IMG/VR virus record: IMGVR_UViG_3300039066_000010
DNA length: 64,000 nt
From: a virus
Strand: one strand, 5' to 3'
Part shown: piece after piece, positions 5,596 through 22,979 of the stretch
How the letters are laid out: each line of letters starts with the position of its first letter
How positions within the stretch are numbered: position 1 is the stretch's first letter
Notes under the pieces: model-generated
Database searches by the model: none
Told to the model about the DNA's origin: nothing
The model's input: only the letters and a program-made list of their open reading frames with translations
Translations under genes and position numbers: made by a program

Positions 5596-6531
5596 TTATT
5601 TGGTTTTAATGGTAGGTATTCCATATTTAGTTGTCAACCAATCTCGTTTATACATGTCGTACTGTCTTTGTGTTGGTAATTTATCAACACAGTATTTAAC
5701 ATAATTAGCCTCTTCCTTCTCTAGTTTGATTCTCTCCCTTTCCAATCTGGAGATATTCTCTAATCTTTCTAAAGTTCCGTCTATCTTATGTATGATTTTA
5801 TAACACTCGTCTATGTAATAATCATAATTGATATCATAATCTGATATGTCTTTCGGTACGAAGGTGTTGAAAATAGTAACAAGTTTTCCTGATTCAATCT
5901 CTATACTCCTGTCGTCTTTTAACTTCCTGAAAGTTCTACCATTTGTTGATATAAAATATCTGTTTGTTTTTTGTTCCGGTCTATGATTCTTTCCGACCCC
6001 TTCTTTAATATCTAAAGTTTCTGAAACCCATCCGTGTGAAGCATTGAATGTTTTACAGAAATCATAAATATTAGTGTGATTTCTAACAGTTTGTTCAACC
6101 GGAATGTTTTTAAGGAAGTAATCAGATACAGCCAAAGCAACAATTCCTTGAGAGAATGATTTATGATACTCCCCATCTTTAATCATTTCCTGATTAGATT
6201 TGAAAGTACCTTTGTATTTGACTTTACCATTAACTCCTACAGCGATGTAGTTATTAACATTTAATATTATCATTTTCTGATAAGCTACATACTCTAAAAC
6301 TAATCTCGTTCTAGCCTCCCATTCTTTACAAATCTCCCAGTATAATTTCTTATATTTTATTGGGATTCGAACAGTTAAACCATCCGTATTGATTTGTAAC
6401 ATTTTTAAATCCGGTACTCTAGTCATTAACATTTCAGACAACATACATAAAGCTAATTGTCCAGCTAATGTTGTTTTCAAAGTGTATAACGGGTCGTATA
6501 AAAAACTGTACTCTGAGTTTGATTTTCCATA
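5596..6531 (-). CDS. Family B DNA polymerase, exon 3 (motif B tail YGK, motif C INTDG, KxY region)
   Basis: In-frame upstream extension of track ORF reads RYGKSNSEYSFLYDPLYTLKTTLAGQ; LQINTDGLTV matches PolB motif C (DTD). Confidence 0.55.
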   Translation of the reverse strand, partial: YGKSNSEYSFLYDPLYTLKTTLAGQLALCMLSEMLMTRVPDLKMLQINTDGLTVRIPIKYKKLYWEICKEWEARTRLVLEYVAYQKMIILNVNNYIAVGVNGKVKYKGTFKSNQEMIKDGEYHKSFSQGIVALAVSDYFLKNIPVEQTVRNHTNIYDFCKTFNASHGWVSETLDIKEGVGKNHRPEQKTNRYFISTNGRTFRKLKDDRSIEIESGKLVTIFNTFVPKDISDYDINYDYYIDECYKIIHKIDGTLERLENISRLERERIKLEKEEANYVKYCVDKLPTQRQYDMYKRDWLTTKYGIPTIKTK

Positions 6532-6532
6532 T

Positions 6533-7556
6533 CTTTATTTGTTATCTTGTAAGCTCTTTATCTCACAACTCTGCATTTTATTTTGTTATATGCAGTTCAG
6601 ACTATATCATCATCTTTCGATGTCGGACGCTCGTGTCGAGTTTATTGTTTACGCTACTCACTCATTAGTCGTTGAACCTTCTAGTTACTTATTGCGTTTC
6701 ACTAGCTTGGCTGCTGATTGTCCACTTCTGGAGTTTCCAGCAATTCATCCAATTTTAATTCGGCATATTTGAAAATCAAACCTTTGTAGGTTTTACCTGT
6801 TTTACAACTCTTGTTAATATTACAACTCATTAACATTTTATAAGGAATACCTAGTCTATCACTACTAAATCTACTTTTAATGGGTAATTCATTTTCTGAG
6901 GTTAATGACCACTCTTCTAAGTCTTTACTTGATTCCCAAGTACCTAATAACACCTTATCTAAAGAGTAAACGCTTATTTTTGGGCTATTTAATCTACTTC
7001 TTTTAGAAGTGTTTTTATGAGCCTGTTTTAGTTCATCGCTTATTGTCTTAGGTACTTTTAAATAAGAGTAATCATGTTTTTCTTTAGTCAATCCCTTATT
7101 CCAAGTTCTCCTCCCATAAAATGTAGATTTTAATTCTCCTCTTGTGTATCTATCTTTTAATGTTTTAGCTCTCTTAATTATAGTTTCTTTAGATAAATTA
7201 GGTGTACCAGAAGCTAAAGGGTTTATATTAAATAAATTATCAGTGTTATCTAAATAAATTTGTTCACGGTTTAACACTTGTTCTTTATCTTCTACAATCT
7301 CTAAAATGTTTATTTTAAATTTATCTTCACCGTGTTTATTATAACTTCTTTGTAAATGAGAATTTTTATGTTTGTTGTTTCTCAACATACAAATGTGATG
7401 ATTCAATCTTTTTTTAAACGATTGAGTAGTAGAACCTATATATCTTTTATTAGATTCTGTACAAACTATTTCATACACTCCTATTTTATCTAAATCTTTC
7501 AAGTTATTCAGCATATTATCTTTATTTTTACACAAAGATAATAAAAATATTAATTT
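6533..7556 (-). mobile_element. Group I-like intron 2 in polB (interrupts motif B) carrying GIY-YIG homing endonuclease ORF
   Basis: 5' exon ends in T (…TCGGT|), intron ends in G, joining gives KLSANSV|YG = KxxxNSxYG; ORF-free structured 3' segment 6533-6701 shares blocks with intron 1 core. Confidence 0.55.
6702..7535 (-). CDS. GIY-YIG homing endonuclease (intron-encoded) with C-terminal NUMOD-like DNA-binding region
   Basis: GVYEIVCTESNKRYIGSTT...RLNHH classic GIY-x10-YIG...R...H. Confidence 0.8.
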   Translation of the reverse strand: MCKNKDNMLNNLKDLDKIGVYEIVCTESNKRYIGSTTQSFKKRLNHHICMLRNNKHKNSHLQRSYNKHGEDKFKINILEIVEDKEQVLNREQIYLDNTDNLFNINPLASGTPNLSKETIIKRAKTLKDRYTRGELKSTFYGRRTWNKGLTKEKHDYSYLKVPKTISDELKQAHKNTSKRSRLNSPKISVYSLDKVLLGTWESSKDLEEWSLTSENELPIKSRFSSDRLGIPYKMLMSCNINKSCKTGKTYKGLIFKYAELKLDELLETPEVDNQQPS

Positions 7557-9788: not shown

Positions 9789-11351
9789 TTAATAACTTGC
9801 TATAACACAATCAGTAGTTAATATTGTTCCGGCTACAGATGAAGCACTCTCTAAAGCAACTCTTGTTACTTTCTTAGGGTCAATAATACCCTTTTCATAC
9901 ATGTTAACCAAACTCCTAGATACCACATCATATCCAATATCCATATTATCATTGTTCTCTACTAAATAAAGTGCTACTTCACCATTCTCTCCACCATTCT
10001 CTACAATTGTAATAAGTGGTGAATTTAAAGCTTTCCTAACGATTTGTATCCCTAATCTTTCATCGAAGTTATCACTATCATCAGTGATGGCTACAGCAGC
10101 TCTGATTAAAGCAGCTCCACCCCCAATAACAACACCTTCTGAAACAGCTGCTTTAACTGCAGCAACAGCGTCATCAACCCTGTCTTTCTTCTCTTTCATT
10201 TCGATGTCTGTAAAAGCCCCAACTTTAATAACAGCAATACCACCGGTTAATCGAGCAATACGTTCTTTAGCGTATTTGTCCTTCTTACTAAGTTCCTCTA
10301 AACCAGTGATATATGTTTTCAAATCTTCCTCGTCAACATCACCTTCGATAATCATTGTCTGAAGTGAATCTGAAACTACTTTCTCAGCATACCCTAAATC
10401 TTGAATCAATACTGTTTCTAATGACCCTCCAGCCTTAGCTGAAATTACATTTGCTCCAGTTGCAACAGCGATGTCACTAAGTGTCTCTCTGTTTAATTCC
10501 CCGAAGTTAGGAGTTTTGATAGCATTTACTTTTAAAAACCCCCTGACTTTATTAGCGGCTAAAGTATGTAGAACTTCAGGCTCGTAATCATTAGCGATGA
10601 TTAAAATAGCTCTACCTTGTTGACCAATTTCTGTCAATATAGGTGAAAGCTCTCTAAATGAAACAATTTTATCATCGTATAATAAGATGTAAGGTTTCTC
10701 TAATATCGCCTCTTTAGTTGACTCAGACGTGATGAAGTGATGTAAAGCGTAACCTCTTTCGATTTTAACACCTTCTACAATCTCTGAATAAGTCTCTTGA
10801 GTTTCTGATGTCTCAACTGTAACCATTCCTTTTTCCCCAACTGTAGAGAAAGCTGTAGAAACTAATTCTCCTATCACTTCATCACCATTGGCTGAAATTG
10901 TTGCCACTTGTTTTAACAATCCACTCTTAATACTCACTTCTTTAGACATAATGTCCAATTGCTCTACGACCTGTGCTACGGCTTTATCAATCCCACGTTT
11001 TAAATCGATAGGATTTGCTCCAGCAGTAACATACTTATGTCCTTCACTAACCATGGCTTGAGCTAAAACTGTAGCGGTTGTTGTTCCATCACCAGCATCT
11101 TTAGCAGCTTTAATTGAGGCTTCCCTCACCATATCAACTCCTAATTGCTCAATGATATCGACAGTGTCAACGTTTTCAGCAACTGTAACCCCATCCTTAG
11201 TGGCATGAGCTTTCCCATCTTTACCTCGAATCACTACGAATCGTCCTTTAGCACCTAAAGTGGTTTTAACAGCGTTACATAAAAAATCTACCCCGTTCTT
11301 TAAGGACTCTCTGGCTTTATCTTTAAAAGCTATTTCTTTTTGACTACTCAT
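9789..11351 (-). CDS. groEL: GroEL-like chaperonin (Cpn60) without C-terminal GGM tail
   Basis: AKDAGDGTTTATVLAQAMV and overall GroEL-length 520 aa with equatorial/apical motif pattern. Confidence 0.9.
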   Translation of the reverse strand: MSSQKEIAFKDKARESLKNGVDFLCNAVKTTLGAKGRFVVIRGKDGKAHATKDGVTVAENVDTVDIIEQLGVDMVREASIKAAKDAGDGTTTATVLAQAMVSEGHKYVTAGANPIDLKRGIDKAVAQVVEQLDIMSKEVSIKSGLLKQVATISANGDEVIGELVSTAFSTVGEKGMVTVETSETQETYSEIVEGVKIERGYALHHFITSESTKEAILEKPYILLYDDKIVSFRELSPILTEIGQQGRAILIIANDYEPEVLHTLAANKVRGFLKVNAIKTPNFGELNRETLSDIAVATGANVISAKAGGSLETVLIQDLGYAEKVVSDSLQTMIIEGDVDEEDLKTYITGLEELSKKDKYAKERIARLTGGIAVIKVGAFTDIEMKEKKDRVDDAVAAVKAAVSEGVVIGGGAALIRAAVAITDDSDNFDERLGIQIVRKALNSPLITIVENGGENGEVALYLVENNDNMDIGYDVVSRSLVNMYEKGIIDPKKVTRVALESASSVAGTILTTDCVIASY

Positions 11352-11643: not shown

Positions 11644-12078
11644 TTATTTAAGATTTACACATTTATCATTCTCACAAGTACATTCAAAACAAGCCGTTAA
11701 AGAATATTGAGGGTCTACTTTCATTTTCTTAATTTCCTCATGTAACATCCCTTGAACATTAAACATCATTCCACAAAGATTATCAATCTGATTCTCGTGT
11801 GTTTCAACACCTCTGTGATTACTCCATACATCGAAGAAATGTCTCCACATTGACTTCATATAAGCCGTAATAGGTATCCCTTTCTGCCAGTTGTCACTAT
11901 CACGAAGTTTACCATCGGCTTGAAGTCTGTTCTTGTGCATGTACTCAGCATAAGCTTTTAACGCTAAAGGTGATAAGAATCCTTCGTAATCTAACTTGTT
12001 ATGGTCTAGATTTCTTGTAGCTCCTGTTTCAAATTGTCTCATTCCGATTTCCATGTCTGGTTCTGTTTCTTTACTCAT
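11644..12078 (-). CDS. Hypothetical protein (Cys-rich C-terminus)
   Basis: ORF, no recognisable motif. Confidence 0.4.
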   Translation of the reverse strand: MSKETEPDMEIGMRQFETGATRNLDHNKLDYEGFLSPLALKAYAEYMHKNRLQADGKLRDSDNWQKGIPITAYMKSMWRHFFDVWSNHRGVETHENQIDNLCGMMFNVQGMLHEEIKKMKVDPQYSLTACFECTCENDKCVNLK

Positions 12079-12427
12079 AGAATTTATCTATTAAAATTTT
12101 ATAAATTTCTTCCCATTCCGGAAGACCTGTTAAACATCTGTCGTCGATGTAAACGTCCGCTGATATCTTACGACAATCGCTACTGTACTGCTTGATAAGA
12201 ACTGGGTCATTTTCATTAAAATAATGAAACCTGATTTTATTCTTAATCAAAAAATTCTTAGCGTTCTCTGCAAATACTCCTGAGCGACAAGTGTTGATGA
12301 TGATTGTAAAACCATCATCGTACAACTTGTTGATATAGTATTTTGCTTCAGCTCTTAATTCCCCTATATTAGGGTAATTTTCTTCAACGATTGTTCCGTC
12401 GAAGTCTAGTGCTATCCTTTTATTCAT
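12071..12427 (-). CDS. HAD-superfamily hydrolase (nucleotidase-like)
   Basis: LDFDGT (DxDGT motif I) near N-terminus. Confidence 0.55.
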   Translation of the reverse strand: MNKRIALDFDGTIVEENYPNIGELRAEAKYYINKLYDDGFTIIINTCRSGVFAENAKNFLIKNKIRFHYFNENDPVLIKQYSSDCRKISADVYIDDRCLTGLPEWEEIYKILIDKFYE

Positions 12428-15772: not shown

Positions 15773-16318
15773 TTACTTAATTAAATATTTAACATTGTTT
15801 ACAATCACCCAGTTTAATGTTCTTGGGTCAACTAATCGACTTCTACCGTCAAACTCTGCTTTTGTTCCTTTTTCTTGCTCCATGTCAACAAAGTGAATTC
15901 TACCAAAGTCATCAGTTCCACCGTGGTGTCTACCAATCATTACTCTTTCTTCACCGTTTAATCCTTTCTTAACAGCGGCTTTCATAGCTTTCTCAGCCTC
16001 TTTTGGAGCTGTTCCTTCATATGCTGTCATGATTTCCTTAACCACGTCTGCCTCTTTAACTTGCTTGTTAAAACAAACAGTCATCGCAACTCTAGGATGA
16101 GATAAGAAAACTTCAGCCATCTCTGTCTTAGTTATTTTCTTTTCCTCTTTGAAATCATGTGCCGACATTAAGAACGACTCTACATACTTAGAATCTACTA
16201 CAACCGGTTCACCAGATTCTGTGGCTAATTGAACTCTATCCCCAGAAATCTTTTGTACTTTGTAGTATTGAGATTCAGAAAGAATACTACCTTCTTTCAA
16301 TTTTTTAAAATCGCTCAT
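15773..16318 (-). CDS. Hypothetical protein
   Basis: ORF only. Confidence 0.4.
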   Translation of the reverse strand: MSDFKKLKEGSILSESQYYKVQKISGDRVQLATESGEPVVVDSKYVESFLMSAHDFKEEKKITKTEMAEVFLSHPRVAMTVCFNKQVKEADVVKEIMTAYEGTAPKEAEKAMKAAVKKGLNGEERVMIGRHHGGTDDFGRIHFVDMEQEKGTKAEFDGRSRLVDPRTLNWVIVNNVKYLIK

Positions 16319-16319
16319 A

Positions 16320-17156
16320 TTATAATAATTTAGTCATTGATTTGTAAGCACCAATTAATTCACTATCACCAGAAGCTTCAGCACTACGCATTGATGTTGT
16401 GAAAGCATCCACGTTTGTTCTAGCGTAAGTCAATCCTTCAACAATAGTTGAGATGTTTTGAGATTTCTTGTAATGCATGCAAACACCGTCTGTTAATTCA
16501 GATACTTTTTTGTAGAATGTTCTACCTGTTATATTCAAAGTATCAATTTGAATTTGATTAGATGCAGCATTTCTTACTTCGTCTTCCCAATTAACAGTGT
16601 GATTTACACCATCGTATCTGTAACTATCCCCATGTGGGTCAGCATCCCCAATTAAGAATAAAGATTTTTTAACCCCTTCTCTCCATTGTGTCTCTCTAAC
16701 AACTTTTTTGATAACTAATTCGTAGAATTCATCACCATCTCCACCACTTGTATTCTGAGCGTTTCTGATAAAGTTTTGAATAGCTACTTCATCATTAGTT
16801 GGAGGTAATACTTGATAAGCTTTTCCGAATTTACCTCCTACGACACTCTGCATATCACAATAATCCCCAAACGCTACAACCCCAATCCTTAAATTAGGAG
16901 AGTTTTTGAATAAAGAAGATGTCATCTCTGACACTTTTCTTTTAACATCGCTGATATAACTACTCATACTACCAGTAGTATCGAAAGCTATAACCATGTC
17001 TAACCCATTTTCAGATGGGAGTACAACTTTAGATGCAATATGTTCTCTGTACTCATCTGCTGTTGAAAACCCAGCGTTATTAGCTATCGTTTCTTTTCTT
17101 TTCTTAGTCGCCTTATCAAAGACCTCTAATAATTCATTAGGTGTTTTTAACGCCAT
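16320..17156 (-). CDS. von Willebrand factor A (vWA) domain protein
   Basis: MIDAS motif DMVIAFDTTGSM (DxTxS) plus downstream GDAD. Confidence 0.6.
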   Translation of the reverse strand: MALKTPNELLEVFDKATKKRKETIANNAGFSTADEYREHIASKVVLPSENGLDMVIAFDTTGSMSSYISDVKRKVSEMTSSLFKNSPNLRIGVVAFGDYCDMQSVVGGKFGKAYQVLPPTNDEVAIQNFIRNAQNTSGGDGDEFYELVIKKVVRETQWREGVKKSLFLIGDADPHGDSYRYDGVNHTVNWEDEVRNAASNQIQIDTLNITGRTFYKKVSELTDGVCMHYKKSQNISTIVEGLTYARTNVDAFTTSMRSAEASGDSELIGAYKSMTKLL

Positions 17157-17406
17157 TTTGTATTTGTTTTAATTGTTGTGGTGTATATTGTACATTACTG
17201 TAAATATTAATTCCGGCATAAGTGGTCGGAACAAAAACTTTTACGTTACCCTCAAATTTCACGCTTGTATTGTATGCTTCTTTTGTAGTGAACACCCAGC
17301 CCTCTGTCAATAGTTTAAAACGTGTTGTGAAATCTGATATAGCAACTCTTAAAACTTTTTGTGATGGGATTAGACCCATGTATAACCACTTCTCTTTATT
17401 CTTCAT
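17137..17406 (-). CDS. Hypothetical protein
   Basis: ORF only. Confidence 0.35.
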   Translation of the reverse strand: MKNKEKWLYMGLIPSQKVLRVAISDFTTRFKLLTEGWVFTTKEAYNTSVKFEGNVKVFVPTTYAGINIYSNVQYTPQQLKQIQNGVKNT

Positions 17407-17827
17407 GGTATTTGTTTTTTAATTGAGTTAATCTTGTTTTGTAGAAAAATAAAAGGTCGATGTAATCATTCATATTCTTGTTACAAATTTTTACTTTTTT
17501 GACATCTTTATTTTTAGTGTGCTCTCTTTTTAATCGTGAGAGTTTTTCAATCTTCCTAGTGTATGTTTCAACTCTTAATTTATCTCGATTAAGCATGATG
17601 ATATCGCAACCTTTAATAAAACCAAGTGATTCAAGTAATGCTAAATCTTCCTTTTTAACAGGAGAATAAAATTCACTGCCTCTTACATCTTGAATTGTAT
17701 AGGTGTCATCTAACTTTTTGAAAAGTCTAAATCCTTTGTATATTAAGGATGTCCCATCACTATAAGAGAGTTTGACTACGGCATCATAGCCAAACCCTTC
17801 TTTAAACCATTTGTCTAACATTATCAT
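17396..17827 (-). CDS. Hypothetical protein
   Basis: ORF only. Confidence 0.4.
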   Translation of the reverse strand: MIMLDKWFKEGFGYDAVVKLSYSDGTSLIYKGFRLFKKLDDTYTIQDVRGSEFYSPVKKEDLALLESLGFIKGCDIIMLNRDKLRVETYTRKIEKLSRLKREHTKNKDVKKVKICNKNMNDYIDLLFFYKTRLTQLKNKYHEE

Positions 17828-17879
17828 CTATAATTTGTTGATAACAAAGTTATTAATTATAATGCAGAAAAGCAAGTTA

Positions 17880-18692
17880 TTATTTAATATTTTTTAATAA
17901 ATTTGGTGAATTAACCCCGAACATATTATTTTGACCATAAGGTGATTTACCATGACGTCTAAAACCATCCCACATTATTGCTTCATTCTCTAAACGTTTC
18001 AATTCTAACATCTTAGGTTGAGACATAATGTCTTTTGTTTTAGCATCATATAAAGCAGCTTCGTATTTACCTTTCGACTCAGCAATTAATGCTGAAGCTA
18101 ACGCTACTTTTTCAGCCTCTTTCTTACTAGCTAACATATTACTAGATTCTTGAACTGCGATTGCTGTTGCTTTGTTTGAAATACCTACTGGAATATCAAC
18201 ATCTGTAATCGAAACTCTAACACATTCTACGTAAATTGAACCTAAATCCTTATCTAAAATAGTTTTGATTTTAGATTCTGCTGCAGCTCTGTCTGTTTTA
18301 TTTAATCCTTGTGCTGAGTATTGAGGTATAACTTCTTTTAACGCCCCTAGAAATAATGGTTTTAATTTAACTGTTTGATAATCTTGACCGACTTCTTTAT
18401 GTAAACGAGTTAAACTCTTTTTAACAGGTCGGAAATAAAGAGTTACTTCAACCGGCACAGGCATGTCTTTGATATCGTTGTACTCTTTTTTCAAAGTGAT
18501 GGTTTGTTCTCTCACTGAGTATTCAACTACATCGTCTACAATGTAATTCAACCCGTAGTTAACCCCTTCGTCTAGAACTTCAGTTCCGGTTTTACCTCCC
18601 CAAGATACTGGGACTCCGGCACTACCTGAATCAACGGTTGTACATGATAACATCATAATTGCGGCTAACGCCATGTAAATAAACTTCTTCAT
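17880..18692 (-). CDS. Lipoprotein with SPFH/band-7-like domain
   Basis: Signal peptide with lipobox-like LSC; SPFH-like beta/alpha region and Ala/Lys-rich coiled-coil tail. Confidence 0.45.
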   Translation of the reverse strand: MKKFIYMALAAIMMLSCTTVDSGSAGVPVSWGGKTGTEVLDEGVNYGLNYIVDDVVEYSVREQTITLKKEYNDIKDMPVPVEVTLYFRPVKKSLTRLHKEVGQDYQTVKLKPLFLGALKEVIPQYSAQGLNKTDRAAAESKIKTILDKDLGSIYVECVRVSITDVDIPVGISNKATAIAVQESSNMLASKKEAEKVALASALIAESKGKYEAALYDAKTKDIMSQPKMLELKRLENEAIMWDGFRRHGKSPYGQNNMFGVNSPNLLKNIK

Positions 18693-19159: not shown

Positions 19160-19396
19160 TTACCCTTCGATTAATTTTTTAAAGTTTGTTGTGATTTTAG
19201 AGTTTTTCTCAGAGATTTCACGTAATTCTTTTTGTTCGATTTCACGTTCAAGAATTTCGTTTGCCAACTGATTGTTTCTCTTATCTACTTCTTGTTGCAC
19301 TTTGTCCAAAGCGTTTAAAGTTTTGTTGAAAGCATCTAAAATAGTAGATGTTCTTTTTGACAGCGTCGTGGCTGTCTTTTTAAGCGGGTTTTGCAT
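19160..19396 (-). CDS. Hypothetical coiled-coil protein
   Basis: ORF, heptad-like E/K/L pattern. Confidence 0.35.
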   Translation of the reverse strand: MQNPLKKTATTLSKRTSTILDAFNKTLNALDKVQQEVDKRNNQLANEILEREIEQKELREISEKNSKITTNFKKLIEG

Positions 19397-20948
19397 AATT
19401 ATTAATATTAGTTGATACTCTATTTTTGATTTGTTCTAATTTCTCAGTGTTATGAAAAATACCATCTTGGTAGATGACCCTTAACCATCCTATTTCAGAA
19501 CTTCTTCTGCTAACTTGGTCTATCAATTTGTAAGTTCCGTCTTCATCGTTCCCAACACATAATAAACCTTTTGCTGATTTTTTAGTTCCGGAATCAGTGA
19601 TTGGGTCTTTAAAGATTGGTGTGTCAACCCCTTTAATAGTCACGTTTGTTGCTTTCATAGCAAATCCGAAACTGTCTCTGGTGTTAAACTGATAAGTGTA
19701 AGAGCCAATTCCTAAAACAACGTTTGTTGCAGCAAATCCTTTTACCTCTAATCTTTCAAGAATATCCTGAGCAATTGTGATAGTGATACTATCCCCGTAA
19801 ATTACACCAATATGAGGGTCAAGAACTTTATATCCTTCATCAGATGTTGTTCCACCAAACACTTCGTAAAGTAATTCTACTACACCTTTAATAACAGTTT
19901 CTGGATATTCGATATCTCCTTCTAACATTAACCATTTTCCATCTTCATCTTGATAACAGTCTCCTTTGAACCCACAAATAATATCTGCAGGATTACCAGA
20001 GTCAGGTCTTATAACAACCTTCCCATCTCTAGCCATGATTTCATCTTTCAATCTTGGTAAGATATTAGTACAAACATGCCATAAATCCCATGTATCACTA
20101 ACGATTGATACAACACCTGTAGGATAAGCTTTCAAAATTCTCCTGAATGTTTCAATTTCATCCTCAGCACCACCGGCACACATCACTGAATGTTCAGATG
20201 CTGGAACACCCATAGCAATTACACCTTCTTGATGGTAATATTTTCTACCACCTTTGATTGCTGAAATACTGTCACTACCTGTAAAACTTAACAAGTGACC
20301 CAACCCAGATGTTATTGTTGTGAAAGGGTCTAAACCTCTAGCTGAGAAATCGTGCCCCATAAACGGTACAAACCCTATGTTTTTAGAGTCTGTCTTCTTA
20401 ACAAAGAATTCAAATAACTTTCTGTATTCGAAGGCGATGGTAGCGGATGTCATCGGTTTCCACAACAATTGAGACAGTAAAGTTTCAAGGTAATTAGGCA
20501 ACCAATAGAAATCTTTATTAGTGTTTTCAATAGTCAACACTGGGACACCCATCGGTACTAAATCACCTTCTGGTAAAGACTTTACAATAATAGGTAAATA
20601 ACCTAAATCATGTAATGCTTCAAAGTGTGACACATCGTAAGCAGTTCCTAAGTAATCACTGAATTCTTGTTCAAGTTCAGCTAAAACATCTGCTTTTCTT
20701 CTACTGAAAAAAGACCTTTTAAACATATCATGGATATAAATTACAGCCATTTGTTGTCCGAAGGAAACGATTGAATCAATAGATTTCCCATCTATACCTT
20801 TTGGAGCATGTTTGTTACTTCTTGGTGTGAAGTTGGAGTAAACATTCTCTGTACCTTCCGGATACATTTTGTGATGACTCAGTTTATAACCGTCTGTTAA
20901 AAATAATGGATTCATATAAATATTTGATTTAATTTCTACCTTTTTCAT
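19380..20948 (-). CDS. nadV: Nicotinamide phosphoribosyltransferase (NAMPT)
   Basis: N-terminal LTDGYKLSHHKMYPEGTENVYSNFTPR matches NAMPT signature; ~520 aa. Confidence 0.85.
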   Translation of the reverse strand: MKKVEIKSNIYMNPLFLTDGYKLSHHKMYPEGTENVYSNFTPRSNKHAPKGIDGKSIDSIVSFGQQMAVIYIHDMFKRSFFSRRKADVLAELEQEFSDYLGTAYDVSHFEALHDLGYLPIIVKSLPEGDLVPMGVPVLTIENTNKDFYWLPNYLETLLSQLLWKPMTSATIAFEYRKLFEFFVKKTDSKNIGFVPFMGHDFSARGLDPFTTITSGLGHLLSFTGSDSISAIKGGRKYYHQEGVIAMGVPASEHSVMCAGGAEDEIETFRRILKAYPTGVVSIVSDTWDLWHVCTNILPRLKDEIMARDGKVVIRPDSGNPADIICGFKGDCYQDEDGKWLMLEGDIEYPETVIKGVVELLYEVFGGTTSDEGYKVLDPHIGVIYGDSITITIAQDILERLEVKGFAATNVVLGIGSYTYQFNTRDSFGFAMKATNVTIKGVDTPIFKDPITDSGTKKSAKGLLCVGNDEDGTYKLIDQVSRRSSEIGWLRVIYQDGIFHNTEKLEQIKNRVSTNINNYAKPA

Positions 20949-21714
20949 CTGGATAAAGTGTCATAACTTTATCTGATTGAAATACTTCCCCTGTTTCGAT
21001 GTTTTGCATACTTAGTTTTCCGTTCCAACCAGCTCCTGTGTCTACATTTGTAATGTTTACAGCAGTCATAGGATAATCTTTACCCCAGTTTGTTGTTTGA
21101 GTGTGACCTATGTAAACATGAGATACTTCCTCTGCTATTTTATACTTCATCTTAGATGATTCAGCACTTAAAGCTCCCATCCATAAGTCTCTATCCCACC
21201 AGTAAATATCGTCTTTGTACTGTTCGTTTAAAGGGTAGTGTCTGTTGAAACCACCGTGGATAAACAATCTTTTCTTATCATCCTTGTAACTTCTTACCTG
21301 ATTCTTAAAGAATTGTAAGTGTGTTTGAGGGATGTCAGAGTTCAATAAGTTAGTGGTGTAATAATTCTCTATCCTCCCGTTGTTTCCATACGGATGAGAG
21401 TGATATTTAAAATGTTCACCTAAAACATTCACCCCATAACTTTTAGCTGTAGCTAAACCACCTTGCTCCCATCTTACTGGGTGAATCCCAAACATTAAAA
21501 ACTCTAGAAACCAATGGTCATGATTACCATGAATATCGATTCTATTCTTAACCTTTAGTAATTCTTCGACACATTCGTAAGACTGACCCCATCCATCAAC
21601 AATGTCTCCGATGGTGATTAACTTATCATTTTCATAGTCGAACCCAGAACGTTCAAGAACTTGTTTTAATGCCTTAAATGCACCGTGGATGTCTCCAATT
21701 ACGAAGGTTCTCAT
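20929..21714 (-). CDS. Calcineurin-like metallophosphoesterase (PPP-family Ser/Thr phosphatase-like)
   Basis: GDIHG, GDIVDGWG, GNHD motifs in order. Confidence 0.75.
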   Translation of the reverse strand: MRTFVIGDIHGAFKALKQVLERSGFDYENDKLITIGDIVDGWGQSYECVEELLKVKNRIDIHGNHDHWFLEFLMFGIHPVRWEQGGLATAKSYGVNVLGEHFKYHSHPYGNNGRIENYYTTNLLNSDIPQTHLQFFKNQVRSYKDDKKRLFIHGGFNRHYPLNEQYKDDIYWWDRDLWMGALSAESSKMKYKIAEEVSHVYIGHTQTTNWGKDYPMTAVNITNVDTGAGWNGKLSMQNIETGEVFQSDKVMTLYPDEKGRN

Positions 21715-22586
21715 ATGTAATCGATTTCAATAGTTAAACCCTTGCTTCTGTATGATTTACAAGAGTTTGTTGTGAATATCTTAGTGAAATACTCACTTAA
21801 TTTTAAGAACCCTTTAGAGAAAATCCCATGAGTTACAGCTAAATATAAAGCTGCTGGTTTTTTAGCTTTTAATTCATCAGCCAACCCTAAAAATGTAGCA
21901 CCTCCATCACAAATATCATCGATGATTAATACTAATCGACCATCTAAATCAACATCGTTTGGAATTGAGAATTTATCTAACCTCCCAGTTGTTGTGTCAC
22001 GCTGTTTTGTACAAAGTAAAACATCGTTTGGTAAGTTTAAATTCTTAACCACTGTTAACAATTTTTTATGTGCTCCGGCATCTGGAGCTACAAGCACTAC
22101 TTCATTAGGTTTATCAAAACCATCTAAAATGTTTTCAATAAATGTTTCGTTATTGACGTTAGTAGCGTTTTTGATTAATGCCTCAGTAACTGGTGAATGA
22201 CTATCGTAATAAATAACTTCTTCGAAGTTCATATTATTGATAGTATCAGCTACAACTCTCAATCCGAAAGCCTCACCTTTATTCATTGTTCTATCTTGTC
22301 TTGCTGCTGGTAAGTAAGGGATTAATAAAATCAATTTTTTAAATCTCTCTTGACGTAAAGCATCTACAGCCATTTGTAAGAATCCAATATCCACCCATGA
22401 GTTATACCTCATAGTTATGATAGTGAAATCCTCTGCATCTGGGTGAGGTACTTTATCAAGTAAAAGTTTAACATGTGGTTCACCTGCATTGAAGGTCATT
22501 TTTTCAAAAGGTATGATTACATCTCCTTCTACCATTTCGGCAGCTAAAGGATTAAATGCATCATCTAAATTCAGGAAGTAGTTCAT
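21711..22586 (-). CDS. prs: Ribose-phosphate pyrophosphokinase (PRPP synthetase) family
   Basis: IPYLPAARQDR and PRPP-binding VLIIDDICDGGAT. Confidence 0.8.
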   Translation of the reverse strand: MNYFLNLDDAFNPLAAEMVEGDVIIPFEKMTFNAGEPHVKLLLDKVPHPDAEDFTIITMRYNSWVDIGFLQMAVDALRQERFKKLILLIPYLPAARQDRTMNKGEAFGLRVVADTINNMNFEEVIYYDSHSPVTEALIKNATNVNNETFIENILDGFDKPNEVVLVAPDAGAHKKLLTVVKNLNLPNDVLLCTKQRDTTTGRLDKFSIPNDVDLDGRLVLIIDDICDGGATFLGLADELKAKKPAALYLAVTHGIFSKGFLKLSEYFTKIFTTNSCKSYRSKGLTIEIDYI

Positions 22587-22604: not shown

Positions 22605-22979
22605 TTATACTCTTTTCATTGTTTTAAGTAGTTCGTTTAAACACTTTAATGATTCAGTGTTTATATAATCTAAGTTACTTATAATGTCTCTCTTTAAGTC
22701 AGCGTTAGGTTTAACGTCTAATAATAGATTGTCATATACTTTTTGAACATACGTGTCACAATCATATAAGTAGTCGAAGTACTCTAACCCATTAATTACT
22801 GTACCATGTGCTTTAAATCCAGCAACATGTGCAATAGCTTCTAAAGACATCCCAGCAGCTCGAAGTAAAGCGTAAAAGATACCTCTTGCTTTAGTGTATC
22901 TTTCTTTTCGTGACTTAGAGAAAAGGTTTGTAATTTTAAACTCTGTCTCTAAAGAACTTCTTAATAATTGTATATTCAT
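22605..22979 (-). CDS. Hypothetical protein
   Basis: ORF only. Confidence 0.4.
   Translation of the reverse strand: MNIQLLRSSLETEFKITNLFSKSRKERYTKARGIFYALLRAAGMSLEAIAHVAGFKAHGTVINGLEYFDYLYDCDTYVQKVYDNLLLDVKPNADLKRDIISNLDYINTESLKCLNELLKTMKRV

Follow-up and report, generated by a model that had tools for sequence, protein, structure and literature searches.

A probable Adps-Namat operon of the NARP1 type with an embedded metallophosphoesterase gene in a phage genome

The 64,000-nucleotide virus sequence IMGVR_UViG_3300039066_000010 from IMG/VR (the window, by which we mean the whole stretch analysed) carries three contiguous minus-strand genes between positions 19380 and 22586, the outer two of which very probably encode the enzymes Adps and Namat of the phage NAD+ reconstitution pathway NARP1. 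The Adps-like gene (21711-22586, 291 aa, Prs fold) is followed by a gene for a 261-aa metallophosphoesterase (MPE; 20929-21714) and then by the Namat-like gene (19380-20948, 522 aa, Nampt fold). In NARP1, Adps uses ATP to turn ADP-ribose (ADPR) into ADPR pyrophosphate (ADPR-PP), and Namat joins ADPR-PP with nicotinamide to yield NAD+ directly (Osterman et al. 2024, bioRxiv 10.1101/2024.02.11.579819). An earlier note on this DNA had located the three open reading frames (ORFs) correctly and had read them as a phage NAD+ reconstitution cluster directed against NAD-depleting defence, which the outer genes bear out; however, the functions that it gave them, a phosphoribosyl pyrophosphate (PRPP) synthetase and a NAMPT making nicotinamide mononucleotide (NMN), are most likely wrong. 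We regard the outer genes as new, divergent members of the known NARP1 system and the embedded MPE, as a NARP1 associate, as new. Our data directly show to which families and clades the proteins belong, which diagnostic motifs they carry, how the operon is built and that the synteny recurs.

Profile searches placed the Adps-like protein in the Pribosyltran and Pribosyltran_N families and matched it to phrog_619 at 9e-78. Its score against the Prs model TIGR01251 was 109.6 bits, under the curated cut-off of 113, and all Prs equivalogs lay far under their cut-offs. A blastp comparison gave 114 bits and 35% identity to the validated Adps of Vibrio phage Gary, and 87 bits to the validated SPbetaL1 Adps versus 63 bits to Escherichia coli Prs. 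The Gary and SPbetaL1 sequences were taken from the published supplement, and the clade placement is by such scores. By these comparisons the protein is nearer to validated Adps enzymes than to Prs, an option that the earlier note had flagged when it mentioned a Prs-like enzyme acting on ADP-ribose. The motifs ARQDR (within PAARQDR) and DDICDGGAT quoted there are present. The PP loop of the window protein (DDICDGGATF) resembles that of the Gary enzyme (DDISDGGASF), the Prs counterpart being DDMIDTGGTL; Lys194 in the catalytic hairpin aligns with the lysine of the Gary, SPbetaL1 and Prs enzymes; and the protein lacks the C-terminal alpha11-alpha12 regulatory module, ending about 25 residues before Prs. 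All three features, including the C-terminal truncation, have been described for Adps in the NARP1 structure literature. When the 80 nearest viral relatives of the gene were inspected, 78 proved to have a Namat homologue within 6 kb, nearly always downstream and on the same strand, in agreement with the 97% Namat linkage reported for the Adps clade by Osterman et al. The nearest relatives (44-49% identity) also include proteins labelled 'ribose-phosphate diphosphokinase' in genomes of Tenacibaculum, Aquimarina, Flexibacter and other Bacteroidota; these are probably mis-annotated and may be bacterial or prophage copies of NARP1.

The Namat-like protein belongs to the NAPRTase/NAMPT_N families (NF006629, 3e-157; phrog_448, 3.5e-182) and scored 461 bits against PDB 9W5X/9W5W, the SPbetaL1 Namat structures, versus approximately 228 bits against mammalian Nampt. 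Published Namat enzymes are marked by a selectivity-clamp helix (SCH) with the signature GSX-Phi1-X-Phi2-X-Phi3-TRD, in which the aromatic X stacks on adenine. The corresponding stretch reads GSYTYQFNTRD in the window protein, GSFTYQYNTRD in SPbetaL1 Namat and GSGGALLQKLTRD in mouse Nampt. A HMMER alignment to 9W5X showed that the catalytic core residues Phe189, Arg192, Asp215, Arg306 and Asp308 and the catalytic histidine are all conserved. The selectivity-clamp loop (SCL), which is variable according to the published structures, has a lysine at the position of SPbetaL1 Arg40, a residue that stacks on adenine, and is seven residues longer. No homologue of NMN adenylyltransferase (NMNAT) or of Nudix was found in the window or in any locus surveyed by phmmer and tblastn with KVP40 NatV, which agrees with the earlier note on the lack of an NMNAT. 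Because the outer genes are read as Adps and Namat, no NMNAT is needed, and the apparently missing enzyme is explained. That note had also listed Namat among further genes to be searched for; the Nampt-like gene itself is the probable Namat.

Canonical salvage, in which a true PRPP synthetase and a true Nampt would make NMN and the host NMNAT would complete NAD+, is in agreement with the Pfam and NCBIfam family names, Prs and NAPRTase/Nampt, and with the observation that Namat enzymes, although they prefer ADPR-PP, keep some PRPP-dependent NMN synthesis in vitro. However, the window protein carries the adenine clamp specific to Namat and scores twice as high against Namat as against Nampt, and its Prs-like partner falls under the Prs cut-off and is nearer to validated Adps. 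SPbetaL1 Adps yielded no product in a Prs-type control assay (Osterman et al.), and the cluster has no NMNAT partner, unlike NARP2. We therefore consider canonical salvage very improbable. The labels 'PRPP synthetase' and 'NAMPT' on such gene pairs in phages represent a systematic annotation error, which is corrected here.

We also rejected NARP2 and NARP3 as readings of the cluster, since no Nmnat, Nudix, NadR or PnuC was found among the 25 of the window's 30 Pfam families that were listed. NARP2 of Vibrio phage KVP40, composed of Nampt and a bifunctional Nmnat/Nudix enzyme, likewise restores NAD+ by means of a Nampt-fold enzyme, but the window has no Nmnat/Nudix homologue and its Namat-like protein has the clamp that is absent from Nampt. 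NARP3 (PnuC and a NadR-like protein; PMC13464706) shares the restoration of NAD+ against NAD-depleting immunity and differs in its two proteins, neither of which appears among those listed families.

The known NARP1 operons of Bas63, SPbetaL1 and ICP1 (bioRxiv 10.1101/2024.02.11.579819; structures, PMC12774641 and PMC13586617) resemble the window in having Adps followed by Namat on the same strand and in the SCH clamp, the catalytic core, the PP loop, the hairpin lysine, the truncated Adps C-terminus and the lack of an NMNAT. The window differs in that its Adps-like and Namat-like proteins are only 33-35% and approximately 50% identical, respectively, to the characterised enzymes, in its longer SCL with lysine for Arg40, in the 261-aa MPE between the two genes, and in its host, which is probably one of the Bacteroidota rather than Escherichia, Bacillus or Vibrio.

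Gene calling done independently on identical public contigs, of 35 and 73 kb, gives the same three genes, with identical proteins in the gene order of the window. The Adps stop codon and the MPE start codon overlap in ATGA. The MPE stop codon, TAA, is followed after 13 nt by ATG AAT CCA, encoding an N-terminus (MNPLF...) that resembles those of homologues. Since this N-terminus fits the homologues and agrees with the public gene call, the Namat-like gene probably starts at 20915, giving 511 aa, rather than at 20948. A promoter and terminator scan found no minus-strand terminator-like site inside the three-gene block; because its counts were like those of shuffled sequence and its models do not cover Bacteroidota promoters, the absence of terminators is the one usable result of the scan.

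The product of the middle gene matches Metallophos (PF00149, 2e-13) and phrog_246, named 'NinI-like' (1.6e-40). Its profile and motifs identify it as a binuclear metallophosphoesterase of the lambda-phosphatase/PnkP/ApaH clade and not as the Macro-domain phosphatase of NARP1-AP, the three-gene version of NARP1. Foldseek agreed in that the insert is neither a Macro Adpp nor RyDEP, and its best structural match was the PnkP phosphatase domain. The motifs GDIHG, GDxxDxG (here GDIVDGWG) and GNHD noted earlier are present, and all metal ligands, like the motif-III histidine (His65), are invariant in the family. The previous description of the protein as a PPP-type metallophosphoesterase holds for the PF00149 match and for GDIHG and GNHD; it does not hold for motif II, where the phosphate-binding arginine of PPP-type and lambda-like Ser/Thr phosphatases is missing from GDIVDGW. 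The residue at this position, Gly41, aligns with Arg53 of lambda phosphatase (lambda-Pase) and Arg237 of the Clostridium thermocellum PnkP phosphatase (CthPnkp), and glycine occupies it in 18/18 MPE members linked to NARP1, 69/74 unlinked viral members and 67/74 bacterial members.

Keppetipola and Shuman reported that Arg237 of CthPnkp is essential for the Mn2+-dependent monoesterase and dispensable for the diesterase, and that the diesterase-only relatives Mre11, MJ0936 and Rv0805 are without that arginine. CthPnkp and lambda-Pase both open nucleoside 2',3'-cyclic phosphates, and the motif-III histidine has been linked to cyclic-phosphodiesterase activity in relatives of the MPE. Because the motif-II arginine is replaced by Gly41, the MPE is predicted to favour diesters; it would be an active enzyme, but not one that dephosphorylates proteins. 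It is 20-23% identical to lambda-Pase (NinI), the CthPnkp domain and E. coli ApaH, from which it differs in this glycine, in an extra cap insertion at about residues 75-125 and in having no kinase or ligase domains; the combination with a kinase and a ligase-adenylyltransferase that is typical of PnkP was not found, no such domains being attached. The curated models of ApaH, PrpA and PrpE matched only the first 71 or so residues, far under their cut-offs.

We surveyed the genomic neighbourhoods of this MPE subfamily by an alignment-based search, which was required because a search with the single MPE sequence recovered one locus. A locus was counted as linked when Adps or Namat lay within 6 kb, and unlinked viral loci were counted when at least 9 kb of sequence was available. 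On this basis, 18 distinct viral or metagenome loci link the MPE subfamily to Adps/Namat versus 74 that do not. After dereplication to 75 viral MPE groups, Adps was within 4 kb in 15 groups and Namat in 13. Adps was also the commonest immediate neighbour of the MPE (six groups, all with gaps of no more than 30 nt, upstream in four and downstream in two); class II ribonucleotide reductase (RNR) was as frequent as Adps within 4 kb, yet it was absent from the frequent immediate neighbours.

At least four gene orders were seen among the linked loci. The order Adps-MPE-Namat is tight in the window as well as in L099 and L314, and is loosened by extra small genes in L167, L134, L100, L109 and L293; MPE-Adps is found in L013, L101 and L250, while L097 and L112 have Adps-Namat-MPE. 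The clamp motif is present in every linked Namat gene. The identity between MPEs did not vary together with that between Adps or Namat proteins (Spearman rho 0.07 and 0.25, respectively), as exemplified by L013 and L167, whose MPEs are 63% identical and whose Adps proteins are 27% identical, and the linked MPEs were scattered over a neighbour-joining tree. The lack of co-variation and the scatter indicate that the juxtaposition of the MPE with NARP1 was assembled or reshuffled repeatedly. A single co-inherited MPE-Adps-Namat cassette was rejected for want of co-divergence.

The interval between Adps and Namat exceeds 200 bp in 51 of 78 ordinary NARP1 operons and holds several recurrent gene families. 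Most of the slot's recurrent occupants are enzymes that handle ADPR or NAD. The families include, with their numbers of loci, Adpp (14), a small HAD-like hydrolase (about 11-12), a nucleoside 2-deoxyribosyltransferase-like family (Nuc_deoxyri_tr2; 10 gap loci and 23 loci overall), NADAR (4) and HAD_SAK_2 (3). Two further gap families, of 165 aa in eight loci and 118 aa in seven loci, have no Pfam match. Most of these families appear to be undescribed as partners of NARP1; examples of gap genes are L029:6225-6659, L043:1692-2171, L032:7087-7584, L046:6780-7136, L044:9086-9598 and L047:8398-8892. The HAD-like family, queried with L029:6225-6659, led by jackhmmer (3.4e-29) to a 118-aa minus-strand ORF of the window itself (12071-12427; Pfam Hydrolase_3, weak at 1.2e-3), a distal candidate partner, and L013 has the MPE together with a HAD-like gene. 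The window ORF lies approximately 7 kb from the NARP1 genes, beside a dGTP_diPhyd_N-like ORF (11644-12078) and the primase-polymerase gene.

Two accessory genes inserted in NARP1 operons have been validated experimentally, Adpp and RyDEP. Adpp, the Macro-domain (Poa1p-like) protein of NARP1-AP in Vibrio phage Gary, is an ADPR-1''P monoesterase that counters the RES-domain defence aRES (bioRxiv 10.64898/2026.01.28.702374). RyDEP, from the NARP1 locus of phage DyoEdafos, is an RyR-domain glycosidase that cuts the ribose-ribose bond of 2'/3'cADPR to give linear ADPR, turning Thoeris cADPR signals into ADPR for NARP1 (bioRxiv 10.64898/2026.05.28.727677). The window resembles NARP1-AP in its three-gene layout, where a phosphoesterase gene separates Adps from Namat, and in the idea of a helper that would make ADPR out of a non-canonical product of NAD+ breakdown; its middle gene differs in being calcineurin-like and binuclear, without homology to Macro and with a predicted diesterase bias. 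With RyDEP it shares an accessory gene inserted in the operon, although the window gene encodes a phosphoesterase in which no RyR domain was found. The earlier note was right to place the MPE outside the canonical pathways, given that the phosphatase of the known three-gene version has a Macro domain. Table S1 of the NARP1-AP paper is confined to Macro proteins, with no metallophosphoesterase, and we found no literature on an MPE partner of NARP1 or on an anti-defence MPE acting on ADP-ribose, most subscription journals being outside our coverage.

The MPE could be a non-homologous replacement of Adpp, that is, an ADPR-1''-phosphate monoesterase directed against NAD+ cleavage by aRES. The Adps-phosphatase-Namat layout is that of the Gary operon, lambda-Pase and CthPnkp have monoesterase activity, and homologues of aRES are known from Flavobacteriia and Bacteroidetes genomes (NARP1-AP paper, Table S2). 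A hidden Markov model built from 11 published Adpp sequences hit 18/80 ordinary NARP1 loci, but no ORF of the window and none of the MPE-linked loci. However, this exclusivity is weak statistically (Fisher p = 0.06). The replacement was downgraded because Gly41 stands in place of the arginine essential for the Mn2+-dependent monoesterase of CthPnkp, and we consider it improbable. Moreover, an Adpp-like Macro gene lies directly upstream of the MPE (6001-6678) in L147 (5314-5820) and L149 (5312-5818), and these pairs, like the MPE and HAD-like gene of L013, suggest that the proteins act at different steps. Adpp-like Macro genes were also seen within a few kb of the MPE in L138, L139 and L093; none of these loci, nor L147 and L149, has Adps or Namat within 6 kb, which hints at an ADPR-related pairing independent of NARP1.

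Whether the MPE is functionally coupled to NARP1 is, on the evidence of gene neighbourhoods and motifs, an evenly balanced question. In favour of coupling are the ATGA overlap with Adps, the short gap to Namat, the lack of a terminator inside the block, the recurrent synteny and the helper enzymes that occupy the slot in other operons; several observations weigh against it. Approximately 80% of the viral and metagenome MPE members have no Adps or Namat within 6 kb, and the same was true of all 80 Bacteroidota chromosomal members (0/80 linked). Since the subfamily is mostly unlinked, the MPE must have a role independent of NARP1. Neither the closest cultured-phage homologues (Leptolyngbya phage Lbo-JY46 and Cellulophaga phages phi40:1, phi38:1 and Calle) nor the closest metagenomic homologues (58-59% identity) lie beside NARP1. 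The usual viral neighbourhood of the MPE is a variable module of nucleotide-metabolism and replication genes (class II RNR, a second small phosphoesterase, a helicase, a PDDEXK nuclease, DUF3307, Thg1 and YqeY) with homing endonucleases, so that chance juxtaposition is possible, and the Adps-Namat gaps themselves also hold unrelated genes, such as endonuclease VII, Thg1, YqeY and LAGLIDADG. The mutual exclusion of Adpp and the MPE does not reach significance. No residue column cleanly separates NARP1-linked from unlinked MPEs, and an invariant Arg175 and a near-invariant Arg158 could compensate for Gly41 and restore monoesterase chemistry. Finally, the MPE was present in only 1/80 of the Adps loci most similar to that of the window; this figure is a sampling effect, as many linked loci came to light when the search was started from the MPE instead.

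These points fit an MPE that is an ancestral resident gene with an unrelated job, around which Adps and Namat landed in a recombination-prone auxiliary region, an explanation that we regard as the main rival, if somewhat short of an even chance. Cellulophaga phages phi40:1 and Calle_1 are collinear with the window (lysozyme ... MPE ... gp21 ... gp19 ... primase-polymerase); in both, the MPE holds the syntenic position and NARP1 is lacking there. This collinearity marks the MPE as resident in this phage group. The job of such a gene might be RNA or tRNA end-healing as a PnkP-like 2',3'-cyclic phosphodiesterase, Np4N or cap hydrolysis in the manner of ApaH, or protein dephosphorylation in the manner of lambda NinI. 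The 74 unlinked viral and 80 unlinked bacterial loci, the structural match to the PnkP phosphatase domain and the absence of linked-specific residues all favour residence, as do neighbours such as RtcB (in Calle_1), Thg1, YqeY, RNA-repair genes of the HAD_SAK type and homing endonucleases. On the other hand, the gene next to the MPE is most often Adps, no more than 30 nt away, whereas class II RNR is not among the frequent immediate neighbours. Given NARP1 within 6 kb, the two were adjacent in approximately 7 of 13 groups, more than rough random placement would give (binomial p = 0.007 at p = 0.2). The juxtapositions are repeated and do not co-diverge, in at least four orders, and a bystander would have to split a two-gene operon in several lineages. 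The loss of the motif-II arginine disfavours the protein-phosphatase role in particular.

The MPE subfamily (40-50% identity) is also a common stand-alone chromosomal gene in Bacteroidota, including Chitinophagaceae, Pedobacter, Sphingobacterium and Cyclobacteriaceae, and we found no conserved operon partner among 80 such loci (L168-L247). In some of the MPE loci that lack NARP1, a distant member of the NAPRTase family, an ORF of 550-619 aa, lies 4-5 kb away (L095:5044-6696, L116:10462-12123 and L273:10331-12190), and another such locus, L161, has a Nampt-like ORF of 471 aa (9877-11292) 4-5 kb from the MPE. The Namat clamp motif was present in none of these four ORFs.

We propose that the operon works as follows, with a part for the MPE if it is coupled to NARP1; we infer the enzymatic activities, the MPE substrate and the anti-defence phenotype of the window proteins from the comparisons above. 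After host NADases fire, Adps would pyrophosphorylate ADPR with ATP, and Namat would combine the resulting ADPR-PP with nicotinamide, so that the operon would restore NAD+ cleaved by SIR2-, TIR- and DSR-type defences. The MPE, an enzyme of the Mn2+ type, would be a helper in the accessory slot that returns to the ADPR pool an ADPR derivative that Adps cannot use. The prime candidate substrate would be the diester ADPR-1'',2''-cyclic phosphate or a similar product generated by defence. To account for ions detected in infected cells, Osterman et al. proposed that ADPR-PP decays spontaneously to ADPR-1'',2''-cyclic phosphate, just as PRPP decays to its cyclic phosphate PRcP. Opening of the ring would give ADPR-1''P or ADPR-2''P, from which a monoesterase (HAD-like, Macro or of the host) would release ADPR. 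Since the MPE occurs beside Macro or HAD genes, such a two-step route fits better than redundancy.

We consider ADPR-1'',2''-cyclic phosphate itself a rather unlikely substrate. The broader proposal, in which the MPE is an undescribed extension of NARP1, namely a diesterase that salvages cyclic-phosphate or diester forms of ADPR arising from the decay of the pathway's own intermediate or from a novel NAD+ cleavage by Bacteroidota defences, is tentative and on the doubtful side. The earlier suggestion that the MPE processes ADPR-type nucleotides gains from the recurrent synteny with Adps and Namat and loses from the many family members without NARP1 nearby.

The window is of phage origin, as it encodes a portal, a large terminase, a crAss-type muzzle protein, virion proteins and a primase-polymerase, and it probably infects Bacteroidota. 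It has no close cultured relative at the DNA level; when the region was compared by megablast with 50,697 phage records, two short matches to the Nampt family were all that was found. L167 is a deeply diverged relative of this phage, with flanking proteins that are 30-53% identical and the same placement of the MPE. Downstream of the Namat-like gene, a 78-aa minus-strand ORF (19160-19396) overlaps its stop by 17 nt and is possibly the last gene of the operon; it gave a weak match to phrog_12255 (7e-4) and sub-threshold coiled-coil Pfam hits. An ORF of 78 aa directly follows Namat in L167 as well, with no detected sequence similarity to that of the window. Upstream of the Adps-like gene by 18 nt, a 124-aa minus-strand ORF (22605-22979) shows a DnaA C-terminal-like helix-turn-helix (31.0 bits versus a Pfam threshold of 31.5) and may be a small DNA-binding protein heading the block. 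The block is followed on the minus strand (15773-18692) by an SPFH/Band_7 gene (17880-18692), a 143-aa ORF, a gene for a VWA-domain protein (16320-17156) and a 181-aa ORF, an order common to the window and its distant relative L167 (10010-12662). A GroEL-type chaperonin is encoded at 9789-11351 on the minus strand (PF00118, 7e-67; phrog_5725).

NAD+ depletion is among the commonest antiviral strategies of bacteria, and phages add helpers that turn products irreparable by NARP1 into ADPR. Our survey has as its by-product several further recurrent, uncharacterised accessory families in NARP1 operons. Should the MPE be a bystander, what the window carries is an ordinary NARP1 operon of a marine or freshwater Bacteroidota phage. 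If the MPE is instead coupled to NARP1, the pathway would have a third type of helper, in the form of a non-homologous phosphoesterase that recurs in the slot, and this could point either to proofreading of ADPR-PP, which is unstable, or to a way of cleaving NAD+ that is still to be discovered in Bacteroidota. NARP1 operons would then be platforms that collect adaptors (Macro, RyR, HAD, NADAR and MPE), each for a different host counter-measure.

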